NCBI GenBank assembly: GCA_965206645.1
Contig: CBDBKE010000003.1
Span: forward strand, 608,001-672,000
Source: Terriglobia bacterium
GTDB taxonomy: Bacteria; Acidobacteriota; Terriglobia; JAJPHL01; JAPKYU01
Direction: 5' to 3'
DNA: 64,000 nt
Every line of letters starts with the position of its first letter. Position 1 is the first letter of the stretch. Shown in pieces: positions 2,731 to 60,008 of this stretch. Both the position numbers and the translations under genes were made by a program. Under the pieces are notes generated by a model. The model worked only from the letters and a program-made list of their open reading frames with translations, did no database searches and was not told the origin of the DNA.

Positions 2731-3684
2731 CTACTCGCGCTTGGTTGGAGGCGTGCGCTCGGTCGCGAGCATCTCGCGGATGCCTCCCACCGAGCCAAGA
2801 ATGCTGCTGGCCTCGAAGGGGAGGAAGATCTTGGTTGCCTGTCCCGCGGAGATCTTTTCGAGCGACTCCAGGTACTTCAGTGCGATGAGGTAGTTGGCCG
2901 GGCTGGCCTCGCCCAACGCTCCGCGCACGCGAGTGAGCGCCTCAGCTTCTGCCTGAGCGATTTTCAGCCGCGCTTCGGCCACGCCTTCCGCATCCAGGAT
3001 GGTGGCGCGCTTGTCTCCTTCGGCTTTGGCAATGGCGGCCTCCCGTTGCCCTTCGGCACTCAAGATGGCTGACCTCTTGGTGCCTTCCGCCTCGGTGACC
3101 ACGGCCCGCCGTTCGCGCTCCGCCTTCATCTGCATGGCCATGGCGTCGCGAATCTCCCGTGGCGGCTCGATGTTCTTCAATTCTACACGGTTGACCTTGA
3201 CTCCCCACTTGTCCGTGGCCTCATCGAGCACATCGCGCAGCTTGGCGTTCACCGTCTCCCGCGAGGTGAGGGTATCATCCAGCGCCAGCTCGCCCATCAC
3301 GTTGCGCAGGCTGGTCACGGTGAGCTGGTGGATGGCTGCCCCCAGGTCAACGATTTCGTAAATGGCTTTAAACGGATCGGTAATCTGGAAGTACAGTACC
3401 GTATCCACTTCCATGGTGACGTTGTCGCGGGTAATCACCGGTTGGGGCGGGAAGTCGATCACCTGTTCCCGCATGTCCACATGGGGAGACCGCCGGCCCG
3501 ACAACACAAATGGCCGGACGCTGTCCACAAACGGCCAGATGAAATTGATCCCGCTGTGGGCAATCTTGTGGAACTTGCCCAACCTCTCCACGATCTTGAC
3601 CGTGGCCTGCTGAACGATCTGGATGCCTCTTTTGGCCACCACGAAAAGCACAATCACCAGAACAAAGAAAGTAAACCCCGTCAT
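2731..3684 (-). CDS. SPFH domain protein, QmcA/paraslipin type
   Basis: IVERLGKF, QPVITRDNV, LDEATDKWGVKVNRVEL, MKAERERRA coiled coil; GGAG RBS. Confidence 0.92.
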   Translation of the reverse strand: MTGFTFFVLVIVLFVVAKRGIQIVQQATVKIVERLGKFHKIAHSGINFIWPFVDSVRPFVLSGRRSPHVDMREQVIDFPPQPVITRDNVTMEVDTVLYFQITDPFKAIYEIVDLGAAIHQLTVTSLRNVMGELALDDTLTSRETVNAKLRDVLDEATDKWGVKVNRVELKNIEPPREIRDAMAMQMKAERERRAVVTEAEGTKRSAILSAEGQREAAIAKAEGDKRATILDAEGVAEARLKIAQAEAEALTRVRGALGEASPANYLIALKYLESLEKISAGQATKIFLPFEASSILGSVGGIREMLATERTPPTKRE

Positions 3685-3693
3685 AGCTCCCTC

Positions 3694-4923
3694 CTAAATT
3701 GGTTTCACCCGAACCTTGTTCCCCACCACGTCCAGAACCTCCACTTTGGCTCCTTCAAGAATCTGGGTTTCCTCCTCACAGATAGCGGACCACACCTCTC
3801 CCCCAATCTTTACCGAGCCCGTCTTGAGAGTACCCTCGATGGCCTTCAGCACGATTGCTTGCTGGCCTTTCAGGGCTTCGACATTTGTGGCGACGCTCTG
3901 CTGGCTGCGAAACAGCGTGCTCTGGAATATGGTGCGCGAAAACACCAGCAGCAGAAACGAAATAGCCAAAAAGGCGCTCACCTGAACCGCCTGCGACATC
4001 CCCAGGAAGGCCAGTAAAGCAGCTACCAAAGCTCCCACCCCGAACCAGAGAACAAAGAATGCGGGGATCAGGATTTCTACCACAACCAGCGCCAGACCCA
4101 GGAGCAACCAAACATGCCAGGTGCGAAACTGCTCGAACCAACCGCGCGCGTCCACAGCTTCGGCTGCACGCGCGGCTTCCTTGCGGCTTTCGGCGACCAG
4201 TTCGAGCTTGTAGGTTTCGAGCAGCTGTTCCAAATCTTTGCTCTTAGCTGCCGCAAGCTTCAGGGTCAAGGCCTCCTGGGTGGTCAAGGTCAACAGCTTC
4301 CCCTTCTCCACGACTTCCGGGACCACCACATCGGCATCTACCATCGCCTCGGCCAGCGCGCCCGGATGATTTCGGCTTTCCGCGGTCGCCTTCATCTCTT
4401 TGCGGAAGTAACTGATCGCTTTTTCCCCTGCTGGCTCCGACTCCGTCCAGGTCAACCGCACAGGAGTGGCCGCCCCGATCGTGGACCCCGGCGCCATGAC
4501 GATCTCGTGGCTGGCCAGGGCAAGCAGCGCGCCGGCCGAGATGGCGCGTTTGTTCACAAAAGCGATGACGTGCAACGGCGTGTCCAAGAGAGCGTCTCGG
4601 ATTGCGACGGCCGCGTCTAACTCCCCGCCGAAAGTGTCAATTTCCAGGATTGCCGCTTGTGCTCCTGAGGCCGCTGCTTTTTGGAGTTCCTGGCGGATCC
4701 GCCTTGCCAGGCGACTGTTTACAGGCCCCTTCGCGAGAATCAGATAAGCCTCACTCGGACCGGCCGCCTCTTCAGCGCTCGCCTGCCCTTGTCCAGCCTC
4801 CTCCTGCAATGCTTTGGCTCCCGTGGCGGGTGCCGTCACAAGGGGGATTGCGAAGGCGAAGCCGACCAGTGCGGACAGGAGTGCCCGCCTAAGCCACCAC
4901 ATATCCATTCGCCTGCTCTGCAT
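3694..4923 (-). CDS. NfeD family protein: ClpP-like serine protease domain plus short membrane/OB-fold NfeD C-terminus
   Basis: IDTFGG, AISAGALLAL, TIGAATPV, EKAISY; C-terminal GSVKIGGEVWSA...VGNKVRV; upstream of SPFH gene. Confidence 0.85.
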   Translation of the reverse strand: MQSRRMDMWWLRRALLSALVGFAFAIPLVTAPATGAKALQEEAGQGQASAEEAAGPSEAYLILAKGPVNSRLARRIRQELQKAAASGAQAAILEIDTFGGELDAAVAIRDALLDTPLHVIAFVNKRAISAGALLALASHEIVMAPGSTIGAATPVRLTWTESEPAGEKAISYFRKEMKATAESRNHPGALAEAMVDADVVVPEVVEKGKLLTLTTQEALTLKLAAAKSKDLEQLLETYKLELVAESRKEAARAAEAVDARGWFEQFRTWHVWLLLGLALVVVEILIPAFFVLWFGVGALVAALLAFLGMSQAVQVSAFLAISFLLLVFSRTIFQSTLFRSQQSVATNVEALKGQQAIVLKAIEGTLKTGSVKIGGEVWSAICEEETQILEGAKVEVLDVVGNKVRVKPI

Positions 4924-5680: not shown

Positions 5681-6562
5681 CTAGCGGCGCCCGGCGTGCG
5701 ATTCGACCGGTTCGGGAGCCACCGCGCGCGGCGGCCCCAGGGCCTGTAGCCGATACAGGTGGTTGAGCAACACGGGCCAGCGTCCCATCGCGTGACCTTT
5801 TTCCATGGCCTGGGTGACGTAAGCCTTAGCCAGCACGATTGCGTCCGGCAGGGACTTGCCCAGGGCCAGGTTGGCCGCGATCGCCGAAGAGAACGTGCAG
5901 CGGGCCCCATGCATCTTCGGTGGGCGGAGCCGGCCGCCAGCCCTGTTGCCAGCAAAGACGAAATTCTCTCTGCCGTCAAACAGCACGTCCTGGGGCTTTT
6001 TAAGGTGCTCCCCGGTGATCACCACCGCTGCTCCACACATGCCGTGGAGGCTTGCGGCGACCGCTTTCATCTCCTCGACGGTACGCAGGCTCCACCCGGT
6101 CAGGTGGGAAGCCTCCTCCGTGTTGGGAGTCATGAGGGTAGCTTTGGGAAGAAGCCGGTCGTGCAGCAGCTCCACGGCCTCCGGCGCCAGCATGGAGGCG
6201 CCGCTGCCGGAGCGAAACATCGGGTCCAGAACCACAAACGGTAGAGCATAGCGGTCCAGTGCGGCGACCACCGCCTCAACGTTGGCGGCCGAACCCATCA
6301 GACCAATCTTAACTCCGGCCAGGGGGATGTCCTCCGCCAGGGGCGCGATCTGTTGGGCCAACCATGACGCTGGAACGTCCTGGCGACCGCCCACCCGTTC
6401 GGTGTGTCGCACGGTAAGTGTCGTCACCGCTGACACCCCGTAGCAATTGTGGGCTGCAAAGGTTTTCAAGTCTGCGATGATGCCGGCGCCACCGGAAGGG
6501 TCGAAGGCCGCAATGGTGAGAACCACGGGCACGTCGGTTCCGGCTTCGCCACGCGCATGCAT
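5681..6562 (-). CDS. thiD: Hydroxymethylpyrimidine/phosphomethylpyrimidine kinase
   Basis: VLTIAAFDPSGGAGIIADLKT, VKIGLM, VVLDP, TPNTEEA, HGARCTFSSAIAA. Confidence 0.85.
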   Translation of the reverse strand: MHARGEAGTDVPVVLTIAAFDPSGGAGIIADLKTFAAHNCYGVSAVTTLTVRHTERVGGRQDVPASWLAQQIAPLAEDIPLAGVKIGLMGSAANVEAVVAALDRYALPFVVLDPMFRSGSGASMLAPEAVELLHDRLLPKATLMTPNTEEASHLTGWSLRTVEEMKAVAASLHGMCGAAVVITGEHLKKPQDVLFDGRENFVFAGNRAGGRLRPPKMHGARCTFSSAIAANLALGKSLPDAIVLAKAYVTQAMEKGHAMGRWPVLLNHLYRLQALGPPRAVAPEPVESHAGRR

Positions 6563-20209: not shown

Positions 20210-22854
20210 ATGGAAGCGAGTCGTAGGCGGCTGTTCCTGATCGACTCGATGAACTACATTTTCCGGGCCTACCACCAGCCACAGACACAACGCTTCTACA
20301 CGGGCGCGGGCTTGCCTACGGGAGCGGTCTTCGTGCTCCACAACATGCTTCGCAAGCTGCTGGCGGCGCATCAGCCCGATTACGTCACGGGTGTGTTTGA
20401 CGTAGCCGCGCCTACCTTCCGTGACGCGCTGTTTGCTGACTACAAAGCCAACCGGGCTGAAATGCCTTCCGAACTGGCGCAACAGATTCCCTACATCCGG
20501 CGGCTGCTGGAAGCGCTGCACATTCCCATCCTGGAGTTTGCCGGCTACGAAGCTGACGACCTGATCGGGGCGCTGGCGGTGCAGGGGGCGCAGGCCGGGC
20601 TGGAGGTCACTATCGTCTCCAGCGACAAAGACATGCTGCAACTGGTCACCTCCAACGGAGGAGAGAGCCCCGGCTTGGTCCGCGTCCTGATTCCCACCAA
20701 AGACGACCTGGTTTGCGATGCGGCCAAGGTCGAGGAGTTGCTGGGCGTGCCCCCCTGGCGGGTACCGGACGTGATGGCCCTGCGCGGCGATGCCATCGAC
20801 AACATCCCCGGGGCACCGGGAATCGGCGAGAAGGGCTCGCGCGAGCTGATCCAGCACTTCGGCTCTGTGGAGGAGGCTCTGCAGCGTGCCAAGGAGGTGG
20901 GGCGAAAGACCTGCCGCGAGTCCCTCGAGAAGTACCGCGACCAGATCCTGCTCAGCAAGAAGCTGGCCACGATTGAGACGGCTGTGCCAGTCAGCCTGGA
21001 GCTGGAGGCCATCGCCACCCGGCCTCCCGACAAGGTTGCCCTCCAGCAGCTCTACAAGGAACTGGAATTTCACAGCCTGGCGCAGGAGTTGTTGCCGGCG
21101 CTCGAGGTCCGGGAGAGAGATCACTCTGAACTTTCGAGTGAGGCGGAGGTGGCCGAGTTTCTTCAGAAGCTGCCCGCTGGGACTGCGCTGCCAGTTGCGC
21201 TGCCGATGGCGTTAGAGGTAGCGCTGCAGGTGGTCCTGGAAGCCGGCGAGGAAGGCCAGATCCGCTTTGGTCCTGGGCTGGCCGTCTCACCCCAGGCGGG
21301 GCTGGCCCGCGTGATCCCAGAGCGGCTGCTTCCCGCCGCTCGAACCTGGCTGGAATCAGATGAAAGGTTCAAGGCGGTGTGTAACGCCAAAGCGGCGATC
21401 CACGCCTTGCGCGCGCGGGGCATGGCGCTGCGCGGGGTGCGCGATGACACGCTGCTCTATTCCTACTTGCTGGATCCTACCCAAGGCAACCACACGCTGG
21501 AAGAGGTGGCCAAGCGCCGTTTCGGCGCGCGCCTGAGCGGCAGCCCAGCGGAGCGTTCCGACGTATTGGGCCAGCTTGCCCGCTTGCTGGCCCCGGAGGT
21601 GGAGCAGGCCGGTCTCCGGCCAGTCTACGAGGAAATCGAGCTGCCTCTGACGCCGGTGCTGGCCGAGATGGAAGAGGTGGGCGTGCGCGTGGATACGCGC
21701 CAACTGGCCGAGCTTTCCGAACAACTGGCCCAGCAGATTGAGACGCTGACGGCGGAAATTCATAAACTCAGCGGTGCCGAATTCAACATTAATTCTCCAC
21801 AGCAGCTCGCCAAGGTGCTGTTCGAACAGCTCAAGCTGCCGGCGCCGCGCAAGTACGGCAAGGGCAAGGTCTACTCGACCGCTGTGGACGTGCTGGAAGA
21901 GCTGGCCGAGGCGCACGAAGTGCCGCGGAAGGTGCTGGAATTTCGCCAGCTCACCAAGCTGAAGAACACCTACATCGACGCGCTGCCCAAGCTGGTGAAC
22001 CCGCGCACCGGCCGCATCCACACCACGTTCGACCAGGCGGGCACGGCCACCGGCCGGCTCTCCTCGCGCGACCCGACTTGCAGAACATTCCCATCCGCAC
22101 CGAACTGGGACGGCGGATTCGCGCGGCATTCTTGCCCGCGCATGGCCTGGCCGAGTCGGGGTGGAAGATTCTCTCGGCCGACTACTCGCAGATCGAGCTG
22201 CGCCTGCTGGCCCACTTCTCCCAGGACCCGGTGCTGCTGGAAGCCTTCCGCCAGAATCAGGACATCCATTCGCGAACCGCCGAGCTGGTGTTCGGCGTGC
22301 CGCCTCTGTTGCAGACCGGCGAGCACCGCCGTCGCGCCAAGGCTGTCAATTTCGGCATCGTTTACGGCCTCAGCGCATTTGGCCTCTCACAGCAGCTTGG
22401 AATCGAGCAGTCGGAGGCGCAACAGTTCATTGACCATTACTTCGCCACCTACGCCGGCGTTCGCCGCTATATTGACAAATGCCTGGAAGAGGTGCGTCGC
22501 TCGGGCGTTGTGCGGACGCTGTACGGGCGGCTGCGACCGATCCCGGAAATCAACAGCCGCAATGCCCAACAGCGTGGCTTTGCCGAGCGGACCGCCATCA
22601 ACACTCCGCTGCAAGGCACCGCCGCTGACCTGATCAAGCTGGCGATGATCCGCATCCACAACGAGCTGGCAGGCCAGGAGCTGCGCGCGCGGATGCTGCT
22701 TCAGGTCCACGACGAACTGTTGCTGGAATCGCCGCCTGAGGAGGTGGAGGCCACACGCAGCTTGGTGAAGCGGGCAATGGAGCAGGTCGCATCCCTTTCG
22801 GTGCCCCTGGTAGCGGACGTTGGCGTGGGCGACAACTGGCGCGACGCCAAGTGA
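20210..22854 (+). CDS. polA: DNA polymerase I, with 1-nt deletion at about 22076 (probable sequence error)
   Basis: 5'-3' exonuclease motifs (LIDS..YIFRAY, YEADD, DNIPGAPGIGEK); TATGRLSSRDP then frame change to LQNIPIR, ADYSQIELR, AKAVNFGIVYG, QVHDEL. Confidence 0.93.
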
Positions 22855-25909: not shown

Positions 25910-26060
25910 AAGTGGCTAGCCTCGGCATTCGGGTCTATTTTGGGCACCGCCGGGCCTATTTTGGGTGCCGAGCCGCCCTGCGGAGCCCGGATTCTCCCTT
26001 GCCCCCACTTTACTCTCGCGCTCGATAGGTCGCGGTTTCGTCCTATGCCGGCCAAGAGGC

Positions 26061-26094
26061 GTTTTATGCGGGGCAGCCTGAACACGAGTTAGGC
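26061..26094 (+). other. attI-like recombination site, copy 1
   Basis: gttttatgcggggcagcctgaacacgaGTTAGGC; 26/34 ungapped identity to 52145-52178 (minus); GC drops after the core. Confidence 0.55.
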
Positions 26095-26468
26095 AGCAAC
26101 CGAATCCCAGTGGTCGTCCAGGCAAATCAACAGAGCCAGGTTAAGAAAGGAGAAAACCATGAACTCGTTTATTGAGGTGTTAAAAAAGAATGCGGTGTTT
26201 ACAGGGCGCTCACGGCGAAAAGAATATTGGTTCTTCGTCTTGTTCAATATTCTTATCTACATAGCGCTCACCATCGTCGACGGTGTGGTTGGGTCTTCTC
26301 CACTGTTTGGCGGTCTTTACATGTTGGCAGTTTTGATCCCCAGTATCGCAGTTGCTATCCGCAGGCTCCACGATGTTGGCAAGAGTGGATGGTGGCTGTG
26401 ACCTGCCTGGCGATTTCCGGACCAGCTGAAGCCTGAGAGAATGGCGCCCTCGGAGAAACGAGGGAGCC

Positions 26469-26732
26469 ATGAAGAAGACCCGGTTTACCGAAGAGCAGAT
26501 GGTGACGATCCTCCGCGAGGCCGATCAGCGGCCCGTTCCGGAGGTGGCCAAAAAGAACGGCGTCAGCGCCCAGACGCTCTACGCCTGGCGGAAACACTTC
26601 GGCACGTTGGAGCCCGCCGATGTGAAGCGGCTGCGGCAGCTCGAGCAGGAGAACGGCCGGCTGAAAAAGATGGTGGCCGATCGAGATCTGGAGATCGACG
26701 TGCTCAAGGAAATCACCCGAAAAAAATGGTAG
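26469..26732 (+). CDS. IS3 OrfA (HTH)
   Basis: MKKTRFTEEQMVTILREAD...TLYAWRK...RLRQLEQENGRLKKMVAD; A7 run at 26720-26726. Confidence 0.93.
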   Translation: MKKTRFTEEQMVTILREADQRPVPEVAKKNGVSAQTLYAWRKHFGTLEPADVKRLRQLEQENGRLKKMVADRDLEIDVLKEITRKKW

Positions 26733-27649
26733 GCGCACGCGTGCGCCGGCCGCAGGTCGCGTATGCACGTGCACGCGGTCTGTCGGGTCGCCGCGCGTGC
26801 GCCTTGCTCTCCGTCGCACGGTCCACGCTGGGCTACCAGTCGCGGCTGGTCGACCGGGATGCCCCGGCGCTGGCCGCGATGCGTCGTCTGGCGGCGCAGT
26901 ATCCGCGGTACGGCTATCGCCGGATTCGGATTTTCCTAAAACGCGAAGGGCACACGATGAGCACGGACCGGACCCATCGCCTCTGGCGCCAGGCGGGGTT
27001 GCAGGTGCCTCGGCGGCGGCCGCGGCGCCGGGTCGCCCTGAGCCGGCCCCGCCCGGTGCCCGCCACTGCGGTCAATCACGTCTGGGCGTACGACTTCGTG
27101 TTCGACACCTGCGCGAATGGGCAGACGCTCAAGTGCCTCACCGTCGTCGACGAATGGACCCGCGAGTCACTCGCGATCGACGTGGCCGGCGGCATTCGGT
27201 CCGGGCGCGTTATCGAGGTGCTCACGCAGCTCGTGAGCGTCCACGGAGCCCCACGTTACCTCCGGTCCGACAACGGCCCCGAGTTTGTCGCGGGTGCGAT
27301 TCTCCGGTGGCTGCTCCAGGCGCAGATCGAAACCGCGCTCATCGAGCCGGGCAAGCCGTGGCAGAATGCGACCGACGAATCGTTCAACGGGAAGTTCCGC
27401 GACGAGTATCTGAGCCTGCAGTGGTTTCGGAACCGCGTGGACGCGAAGGTGGGGATCGAGCAATGGCGACGGTACTACAACGACGTGCGACCGCACTCGA
27501 GCCTTGGCTATCTGACGCCAGCCGAGTTCAAAGCGCAGCTCCGTGCTGGCTCGGATGACGGTGGGCGCTCGCCGGCGATGCCGGCTCACGCTGACCAAGA
27601 AGAACACGAGAGCGACTTAACCATGCCGACTGGCGCTGTTCTCCAGTAA
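26720..27649 (+). CDS. IS3 OrfB DDE transposase, reached by -1 frameshift at A7
   Basis: YGYRRI, WAYDFVFD, SDNGPEF, PGKPWQN..ESFNG, YNDVRPHSSLGY; -1 frame relative to OrfA. Confidence 0.92.
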   Translation, partial: KKMVGARVRRPQVAYARARGLSGRRACALLSVARSTLGYQSRLVDRDAPALAAMRRLAAQYPRYGYRRIRIFLKREGHTMSTDRTHRLWRQAGLQVPRRRPRRRVALSRPRPVPATAVNHVWAYDFVFDTCANGQTLKCLTVVDEWTRESLAIDVAGGIRSGRVIEVLTQLVSVHGAPRYLRSDNGPEFVAGAILRWLLQAQIETALIEPGKPWQNATDESFNGKFRDEYLSLQWFRNRVDAKVGIEQWRRYYNDVRPHSSLGYLTPAEFKAQLRAGSDDGGRSPAMPAHADQEEHESDLTMPTGAVLQ

Positions 27650-27795
27650 TCGGTGGTCCGAAGAAAGCCGGCAGGTCAGCTGTTGATCAGTCTTGTGCCA
27701 CTCGTGAGCCTTGTGCTTTTATACTTCATGGTGCAAGACAGTCAGCCGGGTGGAAATGAGTATGGCCCTAACCCAAAGGCGGCAGCAGCATAACC

Positions 27796-27824
27796 GCCCA
27801 ACAGGTCGCTACTTGGCGTTCGGC
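27796..27824 (+). other. Internally deleted attC-like remnant after the DUF805 stop
   Basis: GCCCAAC (RYYYAAC) aggtcgcta cttggc GTTCGGC, 2 nt after TAA. Confidence 0.5.
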
Positions 27825-48828: not shown

Positions 48829-49366
48829 CTGATCGAGGCGGTCCGAAAGCAGCAGCCAGATGAGGCCCATCTAGTACAGGTGGTTGCCTGGGCCAGTTTC
48901 GCCGCGACGCGCCGCATTTCCCAGTGGCTGCATTCGCCCGGCGCCTAGCAGCTCAAGAACCGTATTGCAAGTTCTGGGAAGGGCTGGTGGTGGGTCAGTT
49001 TCCGGAAAGGGCGTTATACGTCCAAGTGGCGCACTGCTGAGCGGGTGGGAGGTATAATTGCTCGCGGATCAGCGTTTTGTTAGAGTTTGTTATTATGTTC
49101 CACAGTTATTACTACATTTCCCTTTTTGTGCCCTTTATCGACATACTGGTGAGCCTCGGCAGTCTGTTCCAACGGATAGAATCTATCTATGACTGGTTTT
49201 ATCTTTCCCGCCTCAGCAAGCTCTTTGAGAAAGATTAGATCTTTGGTCTTTTCGCCTGCTGGCCTCAAACCTGTGAACGTAATCATTGCCCTTTTGCTGC
49301 CGATCTTTGAAGTCCATAACATTTGAAATAGAATTGCCAGGGTGAGGACAGTTGAAAGATAGACCC

Positions 49367-50595
49367 GGTGGTCTCAACCCATCGACGCAACACTTTGCCT
49401 TGAAAGGAGGAGGTGGAGTGTATGCGGATGAAGCAAAGAGCTCGTCGCGGTTACACGCTGGCGGAACTGGAGGAGGTGTGGGATCGGTGGAAACGAGGGG
49501 AGTCGCTCAAGTCGATTGGACGAGTGTTTTGTAAGCAGCCATCGTCTGTTTACCATCAGCTTGCTCCGTACGGAGGCATCCGTCCTCGGCCACCACGCCG
49601 TTCATGTTGGGCACTGACGTTGTCGGAGCGCGAAGAGATCTCTCGAGGCATTGCGGCACATCAATCGATACGATCCATCGCCGGGTTGCTGGGTCGCTCA
49701 CCATCGACGGTGAGCCGGGAGATTCGGCGGAATGGCGGCGATAATGACTATCGAGCAGCGGAGGCCGATGAGCAAGCCGGGGAGAGGGCCCGCCGGCCGA
49801 AGCGGTGTCAGCTGGTCAAGCATCCACAACTACGACGGGTAGTGGCCAGAAAGCTCAGCATAAACTGGTCGCCTGAGCAGATCGCCAGCTGGCTGAAACG
49901 AGCCTATCCGAAGGATCCGTCCTATCACGTGTCTCACGAGACCATCTACCGCAGCCTGTTTGTTCAAGCCCGCGGTGCGCTGAAGGCAGAGCTGATGCAG
50001 CATCTGCGGTCAAAGCGGACGATTCGTCGATCCCGACATGCAAGTCTGAGAGGCCATGGACGAGGACAGATCACCGACATCGTATCGATCCGTGAGCGCC
50101 CGGCCTCGGTCGAAGATCGTGCCGTGCCCGGTCATTGGGAAGGCGATCTGCTGTCCGGATCGAAGAACAGCCACATTGCGACTCTGGTCGAACGTCATAC
50201 GCGCTACGTGATGCTTACGAAAGTATCCAGCAAGAAAACGGAGACGGTCGTGTCGGCGCTCATCAAGCACGCGAAGAAGCTGCCGACGGAACTGTACAAA
50301 TCTCTGACTTGGGATCGAGGCCTGGAGCTCGCCGAGCATCGACGGTTCACGTTGGCGACCGACATTGACGTATACTTCTGTGATCCTCAGAGTCCATGGC
50401 AGCGCGGTTCGAATGAGAACACCAACGGTCTACTTCGACAGTACTTCCCCAAGGGAACGGACTTGTCGGTGCACTCTCAGGCGCATCTGAACAAGGTGGC
50501 ACGTCAGCTGAACGAACGGCCCCGTCAGACGCTGGAGTTTGAAACTCCGGCAGAACGATTTAACGCTTGTGTTGCATCGACCGGTTGAGCTGGCA
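49367..50595 (+). mobile_element. IS30-family insertion sequence, about 1229 bp, 2-bp duplication CC
   Basis: Ends GGTGGTCTCAACCCATCGACGCAACAC and rc TGCCAGCTCAACCGGTCGATGCAACAC; host frame restored with a 2-bp DR. Confidence 0.9.
49422..50588 (+). CDS. IS30 transposase
   Basis: LGRSPSTVSREIRRN, WSPEQI, SHETIY, GHWEGD, TWDRG.E, PWQRGSNENTNGLLRQYFPKG. Confidence 0.96.
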   Translation: MRMKQRARRGYTLAELEEVWDRWKRGESLKSIGRVFCKQPSSVYHQLAPYGGIRPRPPRRSCWALTLSEREEISRGIAAHQSIRSIAGLLGRSPSTVSREIRRNGGDNDYRAAEADEQAGERARRPKRCQLVKHPQLRRVVARKLSINWSPEQIASWLKRAYPKDPSYHVSHETIYRSLFVQARGALKAELMQHLRSKRTIRRSRHASLRGHGRGQITDIVSIRERPASVEDRAVPGHWEGDLLSGSKNSHIATLVERHTRYVMLTKVSSKKTETVVSALIKHAKKLPTELYKSLTWDRGLELAEHRRFTLATDIDVYFCDPQSPWQRGSNENTNGLLRQYFPKGTDLSVHSQAHLNKVARQLNERPRQTLEFETPAERFNACVASTG

Positions 50596-51044
50596 CCCTC
50601 TTTGCTTTAGCGAGCCTTTACAACGTGAAAATGAACTCTTGCCTACTGCGTCACAAATGATGTCATAGGTTTCACCGCTTTGGGCAAAATCCTCTTTAGT
50701 GTAATCAATGACCTTATCGGCTCCCAGAGACTTCACCAATTCCACATTCGTGGTATTGCATACCCCGGTGACTTCCGCCCCGAAGTGCTTAGCAAGCTGC
50801 ACGGCAGAAGTACCTACCGATCCAGAAGCGCCATTGATTAGGACTTTTTGTCCGCGCCGAATCTTCCCGGTATCTCTTAGGAAAGGCAGTGATGTTAATC
50901 CTCCACCACAGACGCTCGCGGCTTCACCGTAGGTCATATTGGCCGGCTTCAATGCCAGCGCCCCCTCTTCAAGCAGACATACGTACTCGGCATGAGCGCC
51001 AAAAGTGGCAGCGCTAGCTGCAAACACCTGGTCACCTTCTTTAA

Positions 51045-51823
51045 TCTCTTTTCCCATTCTTTGCTGGCGCTCAATCTCGGGCAACAGGAGTTTCTCCCAA
51101 CCCTCGGCACTGTGCACGTTGCCCGGACGGAGCTGGGCCGCCAGACAGTCGCCGTCTCGATTGAACAAAAGCAGCGGGTGATAGCAAGTGGACTCAAAGT
51201 GTCCGTTGTAGGCGCTCTGTTCCTGCTCCCCGTAGACCGGAATCTCGGTTGAGTCCATATCCAGCACCGCTCGGTAGTGCCACTGGAAGGCTTCGACCTT
51301 TCCGATCAGTTCCCGGTTGATCCGGGCTAACCCGACGAAGTTCTCCACCTTCGCCAGCATCTCCGTCTCGAAAGTTTGCAACCTGGAGGTCAGCGCCGCG
51401 CCTCGTTCCCAAGTCTTCTCTGAACCAATCGGCCGAAAGGTCGGGTCTTGCGACAGCCGCTCGGCATCATTGACATCCTCGTATCCAGCTAGGCAACTGT
51501 AGACCGACTGCCGCAGCAAGTCCGCGAAAGCAAACCGAGCATTGTTTGCCCGCGAATCGGTCAGGTGCGCGTCAATGAGTTCGCTGAATCCCAGACGCTC
51601 ATCCAACTCCCGGACCAGAATCAGTCCGCCATTGGAAGTCACTCGTGATCCCTGAAACCCGACTCGCAGAAATTGGTTGAACGACAGCTGGAATCCCTGT
51701 TTTCCGCTCTCACCCATTGGGTTTACGCCTCCGAACGCTCCGATTGATGCTGCAACCAGTATCAATATTGACGTTGGAGGTTAGCTGAAGGTTGCCGCTG
51801 CGTTTTCAAAAAGGAAATCCGGG
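51045..51823 (-). mobile_element. 5' fragment of an IS1380-family element bounded by a 5-bp TTAAA duplication
   Basis: Starts CCCGGATTTCC; transposase N-terminus from 51717 (VTSNGGL..RELDERLG, GYEDVNDA..L..DP, LDMDST, YHPL, LRPGNVHSA) stops mid-protein. Confidence 0.85.
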
Positions 51824-52144
51824 TTTAAATCGCTTTACATCTTTGCCAACTGCTTCAACTTCTCCGGCCAAGTTAGACCCTAGTGTAGTTATTTTTGGTC
51901 TTATGAGACCAGTGGCAAATCTTGCAATAAACGGGTCACCCCTTCGAAAGGTGCAGTCCTCTGACATAACTGTTGTCGCATGTATTCTTATCAGTACTTC
52001 ATTGTCCTTTGGAATAGGTTGTTCTACCTCTTTGCGCTGAAGAACCTCCGGTGGACCGTATTTTGTGTATACAATCGCTTTCATGAGTCTCCTCAAAGAT
52101 TGCTTTAGCGGTATTTCACACAATCCATGCGATAAGTTTGCAAA

Positions 52145-52178
52145 ACCTAACTCTTGTTTGGTCTGACCTGGATAAAAC
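52145..52178 (-). other. attI-like recombination site, copy 2
   Basis: gttttatccaggtcagaccaaacaagaGTTAGGT on minus; 26/34 identity to copy 1; precedes the low-GC oxidoreductase. Confidence 0.55.
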
Positions 52179-52219
52179 TACGGAAGGGTTGCACAGGTTG
52201 ACACCGCCGGACTGGGGGC

Positions 52220-53392
52220 TCAGGCGCGGACGGCCTCGGCGACGGTAGAACCAATGCGCTCGATCGCCTTCTGAATATTTTCCTGGGAATTGGCGTAGGA
52301 GAAGCGCAGGTAGCCTTGCCCGTACTCTCCGAAGTCTTCTCCGGCAAGGCAAGCGACCCCGGCTGACTGCAGCAGCAGGTCGGCGATCTGCCGCGAGGCC
52401 TTGCCGGTGCCCTGGATGTTGGGGAAGACGTAAAAGGCGCCGCGTGGCGGCGTGCAGGAGAAGCCGGGGATGCGGTTCAGCCCGCCCACAATCAGGTCCC
52501 GCCGCCGGCGAAACTCCTCCACCATTTTCCGCACAGCGTCTTGGGGGCCTCGCAGGGCCTCGATCCCCGCTCGCTGCGTGAAGCTGGCCGTGCAGGAGGT
52601 GGAGTTGACCTGCAATCGGACCACGTGCTGGGCCAGCGCGACCGGCATCACCCCGTAGCCCAGGCGCCAGCCGGTCATGGCATAGGTCTTGGAGAAGCCG
52701 TCCAGGATGATCGTCTTCTCTCCCATGCCGGGGAAGGAGGCGATCGAGCGGTGCTGGCCCTCATAAAGAATCTGGCTGTAGACCTCGTCGGAGAGCACCA
52801 CCAGGTCACGGTTAGCACACAGGCGCGCGATCTCGCTGAGGTCTTCTTCGGGAATGATGCCGCCGGTGGGGTTGTGGGGCGAATTCAGAATCAGCAACCT
52901 GGTGCGGTCGCTAAGTTGATCTGCCAGCGAGTTCAGGTCCAGCGAAAAACCGCGCTCTTCCGACAGCCGGAGGGGTTTGGGCTGAGCCCCCAGGTATTGG
53001 ATCATGGACTCGTAGATGGGGAAGCCGGGGTTGGGGTAGAGCACCTCGTCGCCGGGTTCCAACAGAGCCAGCAGGGTGAAGAACAAGATGGGTTTGGCGC
53101 CTGGCACCACCACTACCTGCTCGGGCGTGACCCGGATGCCGCGGCTGGAGGAGACTTGCTCGGCGATGGCTTCCCGCAGCTCCGGGTAGCCTTGGGAAGG
53201 GCCGTAGTGTGTCCAGCCTTGCTGCAAGGCGGCCTCAGCGGCGGCCACAATGTGAGGCTCGGTGGGGAAGTCAGGCTCGCCGATTTCCAGGTGGATAATG
53301 TCACGTCCGGCCGCTTCCAGCTTGCGGGCCCGCGCCAGCACCTCAAACGCCGTCTCGGTTCCCAGCCGACTCATCCGCTCTGCAAAGCGCAT
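52220..53392 (-). CDS. PLP-dependent class I/II aminotransferase (aspartate aminotransferase-like)
   Basis: LEIGEPDF, NSPHNPTG, SDEVY, DGFSKTYAMTGWRLG, GAFY. Confidence 0.95.
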   Translation of the reverse strand: MRFAERMSRLGTETAFEVLARARKLEAAGRDIIHLEIGEPDFPTEPHIVAAAEAALQQGWTHYGPSQGYPELREAIAEQVSSSRGIRVTPEQVVVVPGAKPILFFTLLALLEPGDEVLYPNPGFPIYESMIQYLGAQPKPLRLSEERGFSLDLNSLADQLSDRTRLLILNSPHNPTGGIIPEEDLSEIARLCANRDLVVLSDEVYSQILYEGQHRSIASFPGMGEKTIILDGFSKTYAMTGWRLGYGVMPVALAQHVVRLQVNSTSCTASFTQRAGIEALRGPQDAVRKMVEEFRRRRDLIVGGLNRIPGFSCTPPRGAFYVFPNIQGTGKASRQIADLLLQSAGVACLAGEDFGEYGQGYLRFSYANSQENIQKAIERIGSTVAEAVRA

Positions 53393-59065: not shown

Positions 59066-59632
59066 GTGCGCTATTTTTTTCGCAGTCGGATCCCCGAGCC
59101 CCGAATGGTGCTGCTGGTCGAGAGCGGTTCGCGCTCGGTAATGGAGAGAGCCTACGCGCGGATGCGCCCGATCTTTTCCCGGGCCCGTTTCGAGCTGTGC
59201 ACCTGCTTTCCCGGTGTGCCGGCCCCCGGCGGCTTTGAGCGTGTCTACAGAGTGACGGAGGCGCCCGATGTAGCCAGCAAGTGGAAGATGCTGCTCGCTA
59301 TGCGGCGCTCGCGAGCCTCCGTGGCAGGCCTGCTGTTCACGCGGGAATCCGTTTTGCTTCGCTGGAAGCTCCTTCTCATGTTCTTTCTGCCCTCCAAGCT
59401 GCTGGTGGTGAATGAAAACGGGGACTTCTTCTGGCTCGACTGGTCCAACCGGGCCTCCATTCGCCGCTTCCTGGGTGCTCGTATGGATGTGGAGGGTGCC
59501 GAACTGCTCCGAACGGCCTTCCGTCTCCTGCTGCTTCCCTTTGTCTTCCTGCTTCTGGCCTGTTACGCCCTGTTCGCTTACCTGGGGCGCTGGCTTCGGG
59601 TGCTTTCCTGGAGCTTGTTGCGCCGCAGCTAA
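59066..59632 (+). CDS. Hypothetical protein with C-terminal TM helix
   Basis: LLVESGSR...PSKLLVVNENGDFFW; operon-like position after skp. Confidence 0.65.
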   Translation: MRYFFRSRIPEPRMVLLVESGSRSVMERAYARMRPIFSRARFELCTCFPGVPAPGGFERVYRVTEAPDVASKWKMLLAMRRSRASVAGLLFTRESVLLRWKLLLMFFLPSKLLVVNENGDFFWLDWSNRASIRRFLGARMDVEGAELLRTAFRLLLLPFVFLLLACYALFAYLGRWLRVLSWSLLRRS

Positions 59633-59787
59633 AGCACATCACGCAGTGCGTTTAGGGAATGCCTGACGGCGCCAAGAACCTGTCAACTCAAGAAAACTTC
59701 CCGCTTTGGATAATCTTGTAACCATAGCTTTGCGTCAGGATATTTACTTTGTTTTAAAAGAGATAGCAGGTAGTACACGGGCCCGGA

Positions 59788-59896
59788 CCAATCTTGACTT
59801 TTTAGTCTAGATTGGCTATCCTGGATCTTGCTACGGGAGGTTTGTGAGTCAAAGTAACAGCTGGGCAAATTAATCTTGACTCATTTGTATAGATTG
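59788..59896 (+). promoter_or_regulatory. Two related Rrf2/IscR-like operator sites upstream of suf
   Basis: CCAATCTTGACT-TTTT-AGTCTAGATTGG (59788-59815) and AATCTTGACTCATTTGTATAGATTG (59872-59896). Confidence 0.65.
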
Positions 59897-60008
59897 CATA
59901 CGCTGCCGCTTGGCTGGCGCTCCCCACTTTTTGTGAAGCGTCACCTTCGGTTGGAAGCACTGAGAGTTTCTACACAATGCCTCTAAGAGGGAGAAGACAA
60001 GACAAGCT

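Follow-up and report, generated by a model that had tools for sequence, protein, structure and literature searches.

On the prevailing view an integron platform cannot move by itself, and a chromosomal one sits at a single locus; we follow the established names of the recombination-site boxes (R, L, R'' and L'') and the single-strand mechanism of attC. An inverted-integrase layout is known from Treponema (PMC3607928) and its group is discussed in PMC4889954, inverted-integrase integrons have been noted in permafrost soils (PMC13323075), and integrons are known in Acidobacteriota (PMC8618304). About one third of intI genes are pseudogenes and a fifth of lineages have several, by the account in PMC2426708. 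Here we analysed one 64-kb stretch of the genome of a Terriglobia bacterium (assembly GCA_965206645.1, contig CBDBKE010000003.1, positions 608,001 to 672,000; hereafter the window), to which all our attI searches of the source genome refer and whose own coordinates are used below. It carries two copies of a motif, site 1 (26031..26094, plus strand) and site 2 (52145..52208, minus strand), and both are almost certainly attI sites belonging to a single family of Acidobacteriota integrons with an inverted integrase, judged by their relatives in other genomes. Site 2, the subject of this study, appears to be a decayed example heading a dead cassette.

In Treponema and in the reconstructed parent of this family alike, intI is transcribed towards attI, and its direction is that of the cassettes. 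The Treponema integron is, as described, a single syntenic locus gained once, whereas the sites of this family number about 40 at unrelated positions, with several to a genome, and no intact intI accompanies any of them. A complete inverted-integrase example is present in the unannotated record of Gemmatirosa kalamazoonensis KBS708 plasmid 1 (L048, 5001-10660), with an intact co-oriented intI 59% identical to the family integrase P0002 and, in the 5 kb after it, nine or more co-oriented and similar attC matches of 94-99 bp, but its attI is unmatched by the profile of this family. Clusters of attC sites lacking an integron integrase (CALINs) and their single-site counterparts (SALINs; PMC4889954; 10.1101/2022.09.11.507474) likewise hold cassettes without a nearby integrase, one or few per place and at several places per genome, and 95% of CALINs are given as having no recognisable intI pseudogene (PMC4889954). 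As presented there, both classes are defined by attC only and SALINs are ascribed to insertion at attG sites, whereas the arrays described here are headed by a true attI with remnants of a platform. The chromosomal integron of Xanthomonas (10.1101/2025.06.18.660453) likewise shows frequent loss of intI and extra CALINs at other loci; there, however, intI is always at one locus (ilvD) and the CALINs lie at few conserved loci, at which the main account reports no attI. Finally, delta-attI-type cassettes of class 1 and 2 integrons, as outlined in PMC12901181, resemble three related loci (L007, L020 and L025) in having attI fragments of varying length downstream of an open reading frame (ORF), but those fragments lie within arrays of clinical mobile integrons and are mostly 11 bp long, in contrast to 30-290 bp at chromosomal places away from integrons here.

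Site 2 consists of about 57 bp of platform-derived sequence plus a cassette-derived core, with the crossover G at 52151. The arm scan resolves it into a degenerate distal arm, a TTTTAT repeat, an L arm (52168-52158), a 7-bp spacer and the core. As originally noted, it lies just downstream of a co-oriented host gene, a class I/II aminotransferase (52220..53392, minus strand; PF00155), whose stop is about 12 bp ahead of the site and whose named relatives are Acidobacteria (68-76% identity). Closer to it are 14 aminotransferases at 93-96% identity, 12 of which lie on contigs longer than 200 kb. The crossover G of site 1 is at 26088, and the site lies 120 bp downstream of a deoxynucleoside kinase gene. 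The original prediction had matched the 34-mer at minus 52178-52145 with plus 26061-26094 at 26 of 34 ungapped positions, and this likeness was confirmed: the next best match in the window reaches 21, and the maximum over 200 Markov-simulated windows was 23. It extends beyond the 34-mer (13/17 at -56..-40, counted from the crossover G) and falls to chance level beyond -56 (18/64) and after +7 (15/53). An attI profile made from other genomes only recovered site 1 at 40.8 bits (E 6.5e-11) and site 2 at 33.8 bits (E 1e-8), and no third copy in the 64 kb. Both sites have drifted, with arm scores (inverted L against core) of 9.0 for site 1 and 11.4 for site 2 compared with 21 for the consensus.

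Sites 1 and 2 agree with the family consensus at 46/59 and 40/59 positions, with each other at 39/59, and with their best relatives in other genomes at 47/59 and 42/59, and thus do not look like a recent duplication. These figures bear on the proposal that the two facing attI copies came from a single integron of the source genome, through duplication or through fragmentation by rearrangement or insertion sequences. The copies do lie within 26 kb on opposite strands with three insertion sequences in their two cassettes, and rearrangement is among the CALIN sources named by Cury et al. in the pertinent part of PMC4889954. However, each copy is closer to a site in another genome, the insertion sequences are inside the cassettes and not at the left ends, and the DNA between the copies consists of ordinary host genes, which makes such a break-up improbable. 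Facing each other as they do, the sites at 26088 (plus) and 52151 (minus) could allow attI x attI recombination by an integrase acting in trans to invert the intervening 26 kb.

A scan of the genome collection for the 20 bases common to both sites, as a pattern ending at GTT, returned 46 matches at 45 loci, with about one chance match expected by our own arithmetic. Three loci in A+T-rich genomes (L003, L006 and L043) match the pattern alone and were excluded before all counts; the remaining 42 loci (43 matches) carry the same site of about 60 bp in 37 genomes, and none is the window's own locus or its orthologue. Unchecked bin labels place 36 of the loci in Acidobacteriota and six in other phyla. 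The expectation of several sites per genome was borne out in these relatives, where four genomes have two or three separate loci at unrelated places; since copies with one mismatch in the 20 bases are missed, such per-genome counts are lower bounds. Positions outside the pattern are strongly conserved back to about -57, and on the other side the sequence diverges directly after G/TT, with core-like bases at +3..+6 (strict GTTRRRY at 27/43 sites) and conservation lost from +7, in agreement with the predicted crossover at G/TT. The step in G+C that had been proposed as a check is of less use: G+C is lower downstream of the crossover at 30 of 38 loci and higher at six, but the mean difference is only 0.04 and is not diagnostic.

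We built an attC covariance model from 18 attCs, 16 from the related loci and two from R751, and it found an intact attC (E<0.01) downstream of attI in 17/42 loci, always on the expected strand, most of these first attCs being training sequences; ten further matches in the related loci were new to the model, and the three chance loci have no intact attC. At least two intact attCs follow attI in 7/42 loci, which contradicts the notion that each site holds one cassette. First genes, where Pfam names them, are typical cassette cargo, namely glyoxalases, methyltransferases, and restriction and Schlafen domains (275 ORFs scanned, many unmatched). Across 16 loci, the four variable core bases pair with R'' of the locus's own first attC at 51 of 64 positions, compared with 43.6 in permutations (p 0.00085), and a wider set that includes seven half-sites chosen by score or by eye gives 78/92; at site 2 itself two of the four bases pair. 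Such pairing is what marks a cassette circle that opened at G/TT.

The organisation of the site is that of a simple attI, with an L arm at -17..-7 inverted relative to the core and separated from it by 7 bp. The attI1 site of class 1 integrons (R751), as depicted in PMC3146285, likewise spans about 60 bp and has inverted L and R boxes, a 7-bp spacer, two upstream repeats and a G/TT crossover. Its sequence is unrelated (the family profile gives E 3.4 on R751), and unlike attI1, this family repeats its 11-bp arm not only as the L box and a distal repeat at -45 but also as an inverted pair over the stop of intI, which lies on the same strand. We read the 11-bp arms as putative IntI binding sites because covariation in the attI sites does not rise above that in shuffles.

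That the motif could instead be a transcription-factor site, a structured RNA or an attC is hardly credible, and the first of these had been named as the outcome that would overturn the original prediction. The 11-bp inverted repeat and the frequent position of the motif behind a host gene would suit such a reading. However, beyond the lack of covariation, the folding of the attI is not unusual (z 0.67), the attC model is silent on it, the downstream genes are unrelated and start after a sharp boundary, and both the core/R'' pairing and the linkage to intI refute it. A long attC or hairpin was rejected as an identity for the site, as the attC model gives no score, right-half scores are strongly negative and the sequence lacks the palindrome of such a site. 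Almost as poorly supported, and highly improbable, is the view that the units are ordinary SALINs, lone cassettes at native secondary attG sites with the shared motif a host hotspot. IntI is described as inserting cassettes at many genomic GWT sites (10.1101/2022.09.11.507474, in its relevant part), and each window site does head one cassette beside a host gene, but attG sites share little beyond GWT, whereas about 60 bp are common to 37 genomes here and are joined to remnants of intI.

These remnants came to light in tblastn searches of the regions upstream of the loci, first with IntI1 and later with 12 family integrases; the intI fragments lie upstream of attI on the same strand as the cassettes. 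In 16 loci, nucleotide homology reaches back as far as the region of the intI stop (about -130), and seven more have N-terminal or other intI coding pieces fused close to attI, so that 23/42 related loci retain coding sequence derived from intI; two have the promoter and leader only. In L001 and L010 the two ends of intI remain but its middle is missing, and a search of protein sets with the L001 fusion retrieved intact integrases of 355 aa. A second integrase search widened this to a family sharing 78-88% identity, most members of which lie on contigs of 1-10 kb. P0002 and P0003 score 468 bits with TIGR02249 (cut-off 265), the six catalytic residues R-K-H-R-H-Y align with those of IntI1 in 6/6 proteins, and hosts include Acidobacteria (P0034) and Planctomycetota (P0021). 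The parent platform would have comprised a promoter, intI (355 aa), about 130 bp, attI and the cassettes, all on one strand, because the intI fragments are co-oriented, P0043 (a database integrase frameshifted near its end) reads through the spacer into attI (-269..-24 of L010, E 1e-30), and P0027 starts in the promoter region. What the original prediction missed is that the window sites appear to be relics of this whole promoter-intI-attI platform with its co-oriented integrase.

Three other recombinases near related loci were rejected as family integrases: that of L011 is IS91-associated and below the TIGR02249 cut-off, that of L022 is a fragment, and that of L005 has 31% identity and lies 4 kb away. 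A motif search of the loci for tyrosine recombinases, made without a positive control, found none, and tblastn was used in its place. The plasmid collection gave a single DNA match, to the 3' end of intI.

These comparisons establish, as far as sequence can, that attI is linked to the 3' end of intI, that insertion takes place at G/TT, that intI was lost by differing deletions and that the loci occupy unrelated positions. On the left the shared sequence stops anywhere between -30 and positions beyond -270; the loci lie beside different genes (mnmE, malQ, enolase, prmC, amidase and others), with L014/L021 the single orthologous pair among the 42. In ten loci the left part is marked by a conserved motif 170 bp before the intI start, and in subsets shared sequence continues for 17-54 bp past it. 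This left-end motif was rejected as an attC junction, by which a whole integron might have moved as a cassette, with scores of -9.5 to 1.9 compared with 5.0 to 17.6 for true attCs and no R'' upstream. Considered as ends of elements like miniature inverted-repeat transposable elements, the ten left-end motifs and the junctions shared in three pairs show no common end and no crossover signature. Targeting of tRNA genes was likewise dismissed, with one doubtful tRNA in 42 loci. In L013, a tRNA-like sequence with a defective anticodon (6046-6136) directly follows the left half of an attC. In the window, a palindrome with an internal tandem repeat (25916-25972) lies between the kinase gene and site 1 and is unmatched by the left-end motif.

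Among the explanations considered, we favour one that we hold to be rather probable as a whole, in which site 2 is the attI relic of an inverted-integrase family that arrived, captured cassettes and eroded. The history of repeated platform arrivals, cassette capture and later erosion is on balance probable. Entire platforms would have landed on several occasions at various points of the chromosome, most plausibly through off-target recombination by IntI, and captured cassettes before they eroded. Deletions may then have taken the costly integrase, at site 2 with all but the last 57 bp of the platform. The attC hairpin would next have been deleted by slippage between short repeats at its base, locking the cassette in, and two insertion sequences would later have destroyed the gene. 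Site 2 today would thus be an orphan docking site in partial decay with a dead cassette behind it; any transcription of that cassette would have to start from the aminotransferase.

Several observations weigh against this history. An intact intI joined to attI occurs at 0/38 loci with at least 600 bp upstream; 35 loci have at least 1,200 bp, and four contigs end within 200 bp and could hide one. Because there is no intact intI-attI junction, the parent is pieced together from fragments and one read-through protein. Metagenome assemblies tend to lose such DNA. At neither window site is an intI, promoter or spacer remnant detectable, at the left edge of the platform neither defined ends nor target duplications nor a recombination site were found, and the comparison includes no empty-site relative. 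Three locus pairs share a deletion junction at unrelated flanks, which in-place erosion explains poorly: L034/L042 share a derivative of 240 bp starting exactly at a -35-like box, L036/L038 one of 290 bp, and L009/L018 one of about 220-240 bp.

These pairs suit a different account, appreciably less likely in our judgement, in which integrase-less mini-platforms (promoter plus attI, or attI alone) were moved as attI-ended cassettes by IntI made elsewhere, and selection keeps dispersed sites of capture and expression. The attI-ORF-attI architectures of L007 and L020 and the attC-ORF-attI of L025 match those that IntI1 is described as excising and inserting in PMC12901181, about 16 loci keep a promoter-like left end plus attI on inspection, and intact multi-cassette arrays stand behind orphan sites. 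On the other hand, the left ends have no crossover signature, the shared junctions could reflect deletions that recurred at the same short repeats, or ancient orthology in which the flanks were replaced, and each window site has a decayed L arm and a dead cassette behind it. Orphan attIs drift less than invariant intI codons (8/133 versus 28/213, p 0.045), in a post hoc comparison with one misregistered locus dropped, but p was 0.58 in the test as first framed and 0.14 for the distal arm alone; purifying selection acting on the orphan sites is at most a possibility. A broader formulation, which we offer tentatively and consider unlikely, is a distributed integron, in which the platform sheds intI, promoter-attI or attI-only modules are copied round the chromosome by IntI in trans, and single cassettes are captured, expressed from a module or host promoter and fixed by attC collapse.

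One methyltransferase gene (85% DNA identity) is the first cassette of L035 and lies upstream of attI in L042 (-2434..-1600). L004 and L019 have the same glyoxalase (96%) as first cassette, although their attI pieces differ in length and their flanks differ too. In L007 (3370-4000), a pair of small genes that by eye resemble HicB/HicA lies between two attI copies separated by 580 bp, and the second copy is joined to an attC-like start at -56, the left limit of both window sites.

Returning to the relic that we favour, the expected absence of an adjacent integrase was confirmed, since the 64-kb window contains no IntI match; nor does it contain a match to the family promoter and leader, so that site 2 is not a complete integron with an intact adjacent intI and its own Pc. 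Its cassette ends in a collapsed attC (49052..49085, minus strand) with an R'' box, a 5-bp spacer, a 4-base word common to L'' and L', and a degenerate L'-spacer-R', from which the intervening hairpin has gone. The left half scores 14.0 bits, a level attained by two of about 128,000 window positions, and the directly adjoining right half 9.0 bits, a score reached by 0.04% of positions. The original prediction had placed the stop of the oxidoreductase within an attC-like start that then breaks off. The stop (TAA, 49082-49080) is indeed in that motif, but the sequence continues directly into the degenerate right half, so the attC is collapsed internally and not cut short. The same L''/L' fusion occurs in L044, and we infer that the hairpin at site 2 was deleted by slippage between short repeats. 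At the end of cassette 1, a weaker case (27796..27824, plus strand) has kept its R'' and R' boxes 29 bp apart and lost its L boxes and hairpin; it scores 11.7 bits (E 2) with the covariance model, with 7.2 bits for the left half, 9.6 bits for the R' part and -12 for the L'-R' half. No intact attC is found in the window at E<0.39 with our home-built covariance model, which leaves both units outside the definitions of CALIN and SALIN, unlike the 17/42 related loci with an intact attC downstream. Excision of a cassette by IntI requires the attC hairpin. The suggestion that cassettes are fixed by attC decay therefore seems to hold for these two, which would be locked in because IntI cannot excise them without the hairpin.

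The low G+C of the site 2 cassette was also confirmed (0.46, compared with 0.64 for the aminotransferase), whereas the single oxidoreductase gene originally described is in fact a pseudogene in three pieces, broken by an IS1380 remnant and an IS30 element. Piece 1 (51824..52084, minus strand) encodes the N-terminal 87 aa of a zinc-type/quinone oxidoreductase (PF08240; TIGR02824 positions 1-80), piece 2 (50599..51042, minus strand) is an open frame covering TIGR02824 positions 81-223, and piece 3 (49080..49364, minus strand; PF13602; TIGR02824 positions 252-325) ends with a TAA that falls within the start of the attC. Since the three pieces are otherwise open, the gene probably remained whole until the elements inserted. 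Pieces 2 and 3 are separated by an IS30-family element (49367..50597, ends approximate, plus strand) with a transposase ORF at 49413-50588 that scores above the NF033563 cut-off and with terminal inverted repeats at 49373-49393 and 50569-50589. Pieces 1 and 2 are separated by a truncated IS1380-family element (51045..51823, minus strand; NF033539 positions 2-195 of 419) between 5-bp direct repeats (51828-51824 and 51044-51040); this copy lacks its right half and yet lies between the repeats, as though a substitute end inside the element had served for its transposition. Elements of the same family lie within 3.5 kb of attI in 5/42 related loci (L012, L014, L032, L038 and L044) as well as at site 2, which suggests that attI regions collect insertion sequences. 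Cassette 1, a DUF805 gene (26159..27793, plus strand), is split by an IS3-family element (about 26407-27671).

The idea that the cassettes are expressed by read-through found weak support. No terminator-like or promoter-like site was found between the aminotransferase and the site 2 cassette, but both cassette genes are split by insertion sequences. No sigma-70-like site was found upstream of either window cassette, and two weak terminator-like hairpins lie between the kinase gene and cassette 1. Read-through from the aminotransferase would be the only evident source of transcription at site 2, because the gap has no promoter-like site and the family promoter is absent.

Each ingredient of this system is known. 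As far as searched, what is new is how widely the sites are dispersed, that intI has been lost throughout and that mini-platforms are shared: members of one attI family occupy about 40 unrelated positions in 37 genomes, with as many as three in a genome by the strict pattern, always without an intact integrase. The literature searched, mostly open-access papers without the supplements that might hold tables of intact members, contained no account of multiple attI-headed integrase-less units or of this attI family. The family offers a concrete, searchable answer to part of the question of CALIN origin where no intI pseudogene is recognisable, and an assayable attI/IntI pair from a dominant soil phylum. 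Tools based on attC would miss both window units because neither has an intact attC, whereas the 60-bp profile finds such relics even after attC collapse. A distributed integron, if true, would generate CALINs and SALINs by a path other than attG insertion, one that attC-based searches could not see once attC had collapsed.

Elsewhere in the window, other mild dips in G+C (0.50-0.54) at 1-500, 3501-4000 and 59501-60000 have no attI or attC match. Of the 381 positions of the polymerase domain, a DNA polymerase I ORF (20210-22633) matches only 2-132, and an overlapping ORF beside it (22078-22854) suggests a frameshift or sequencing error.

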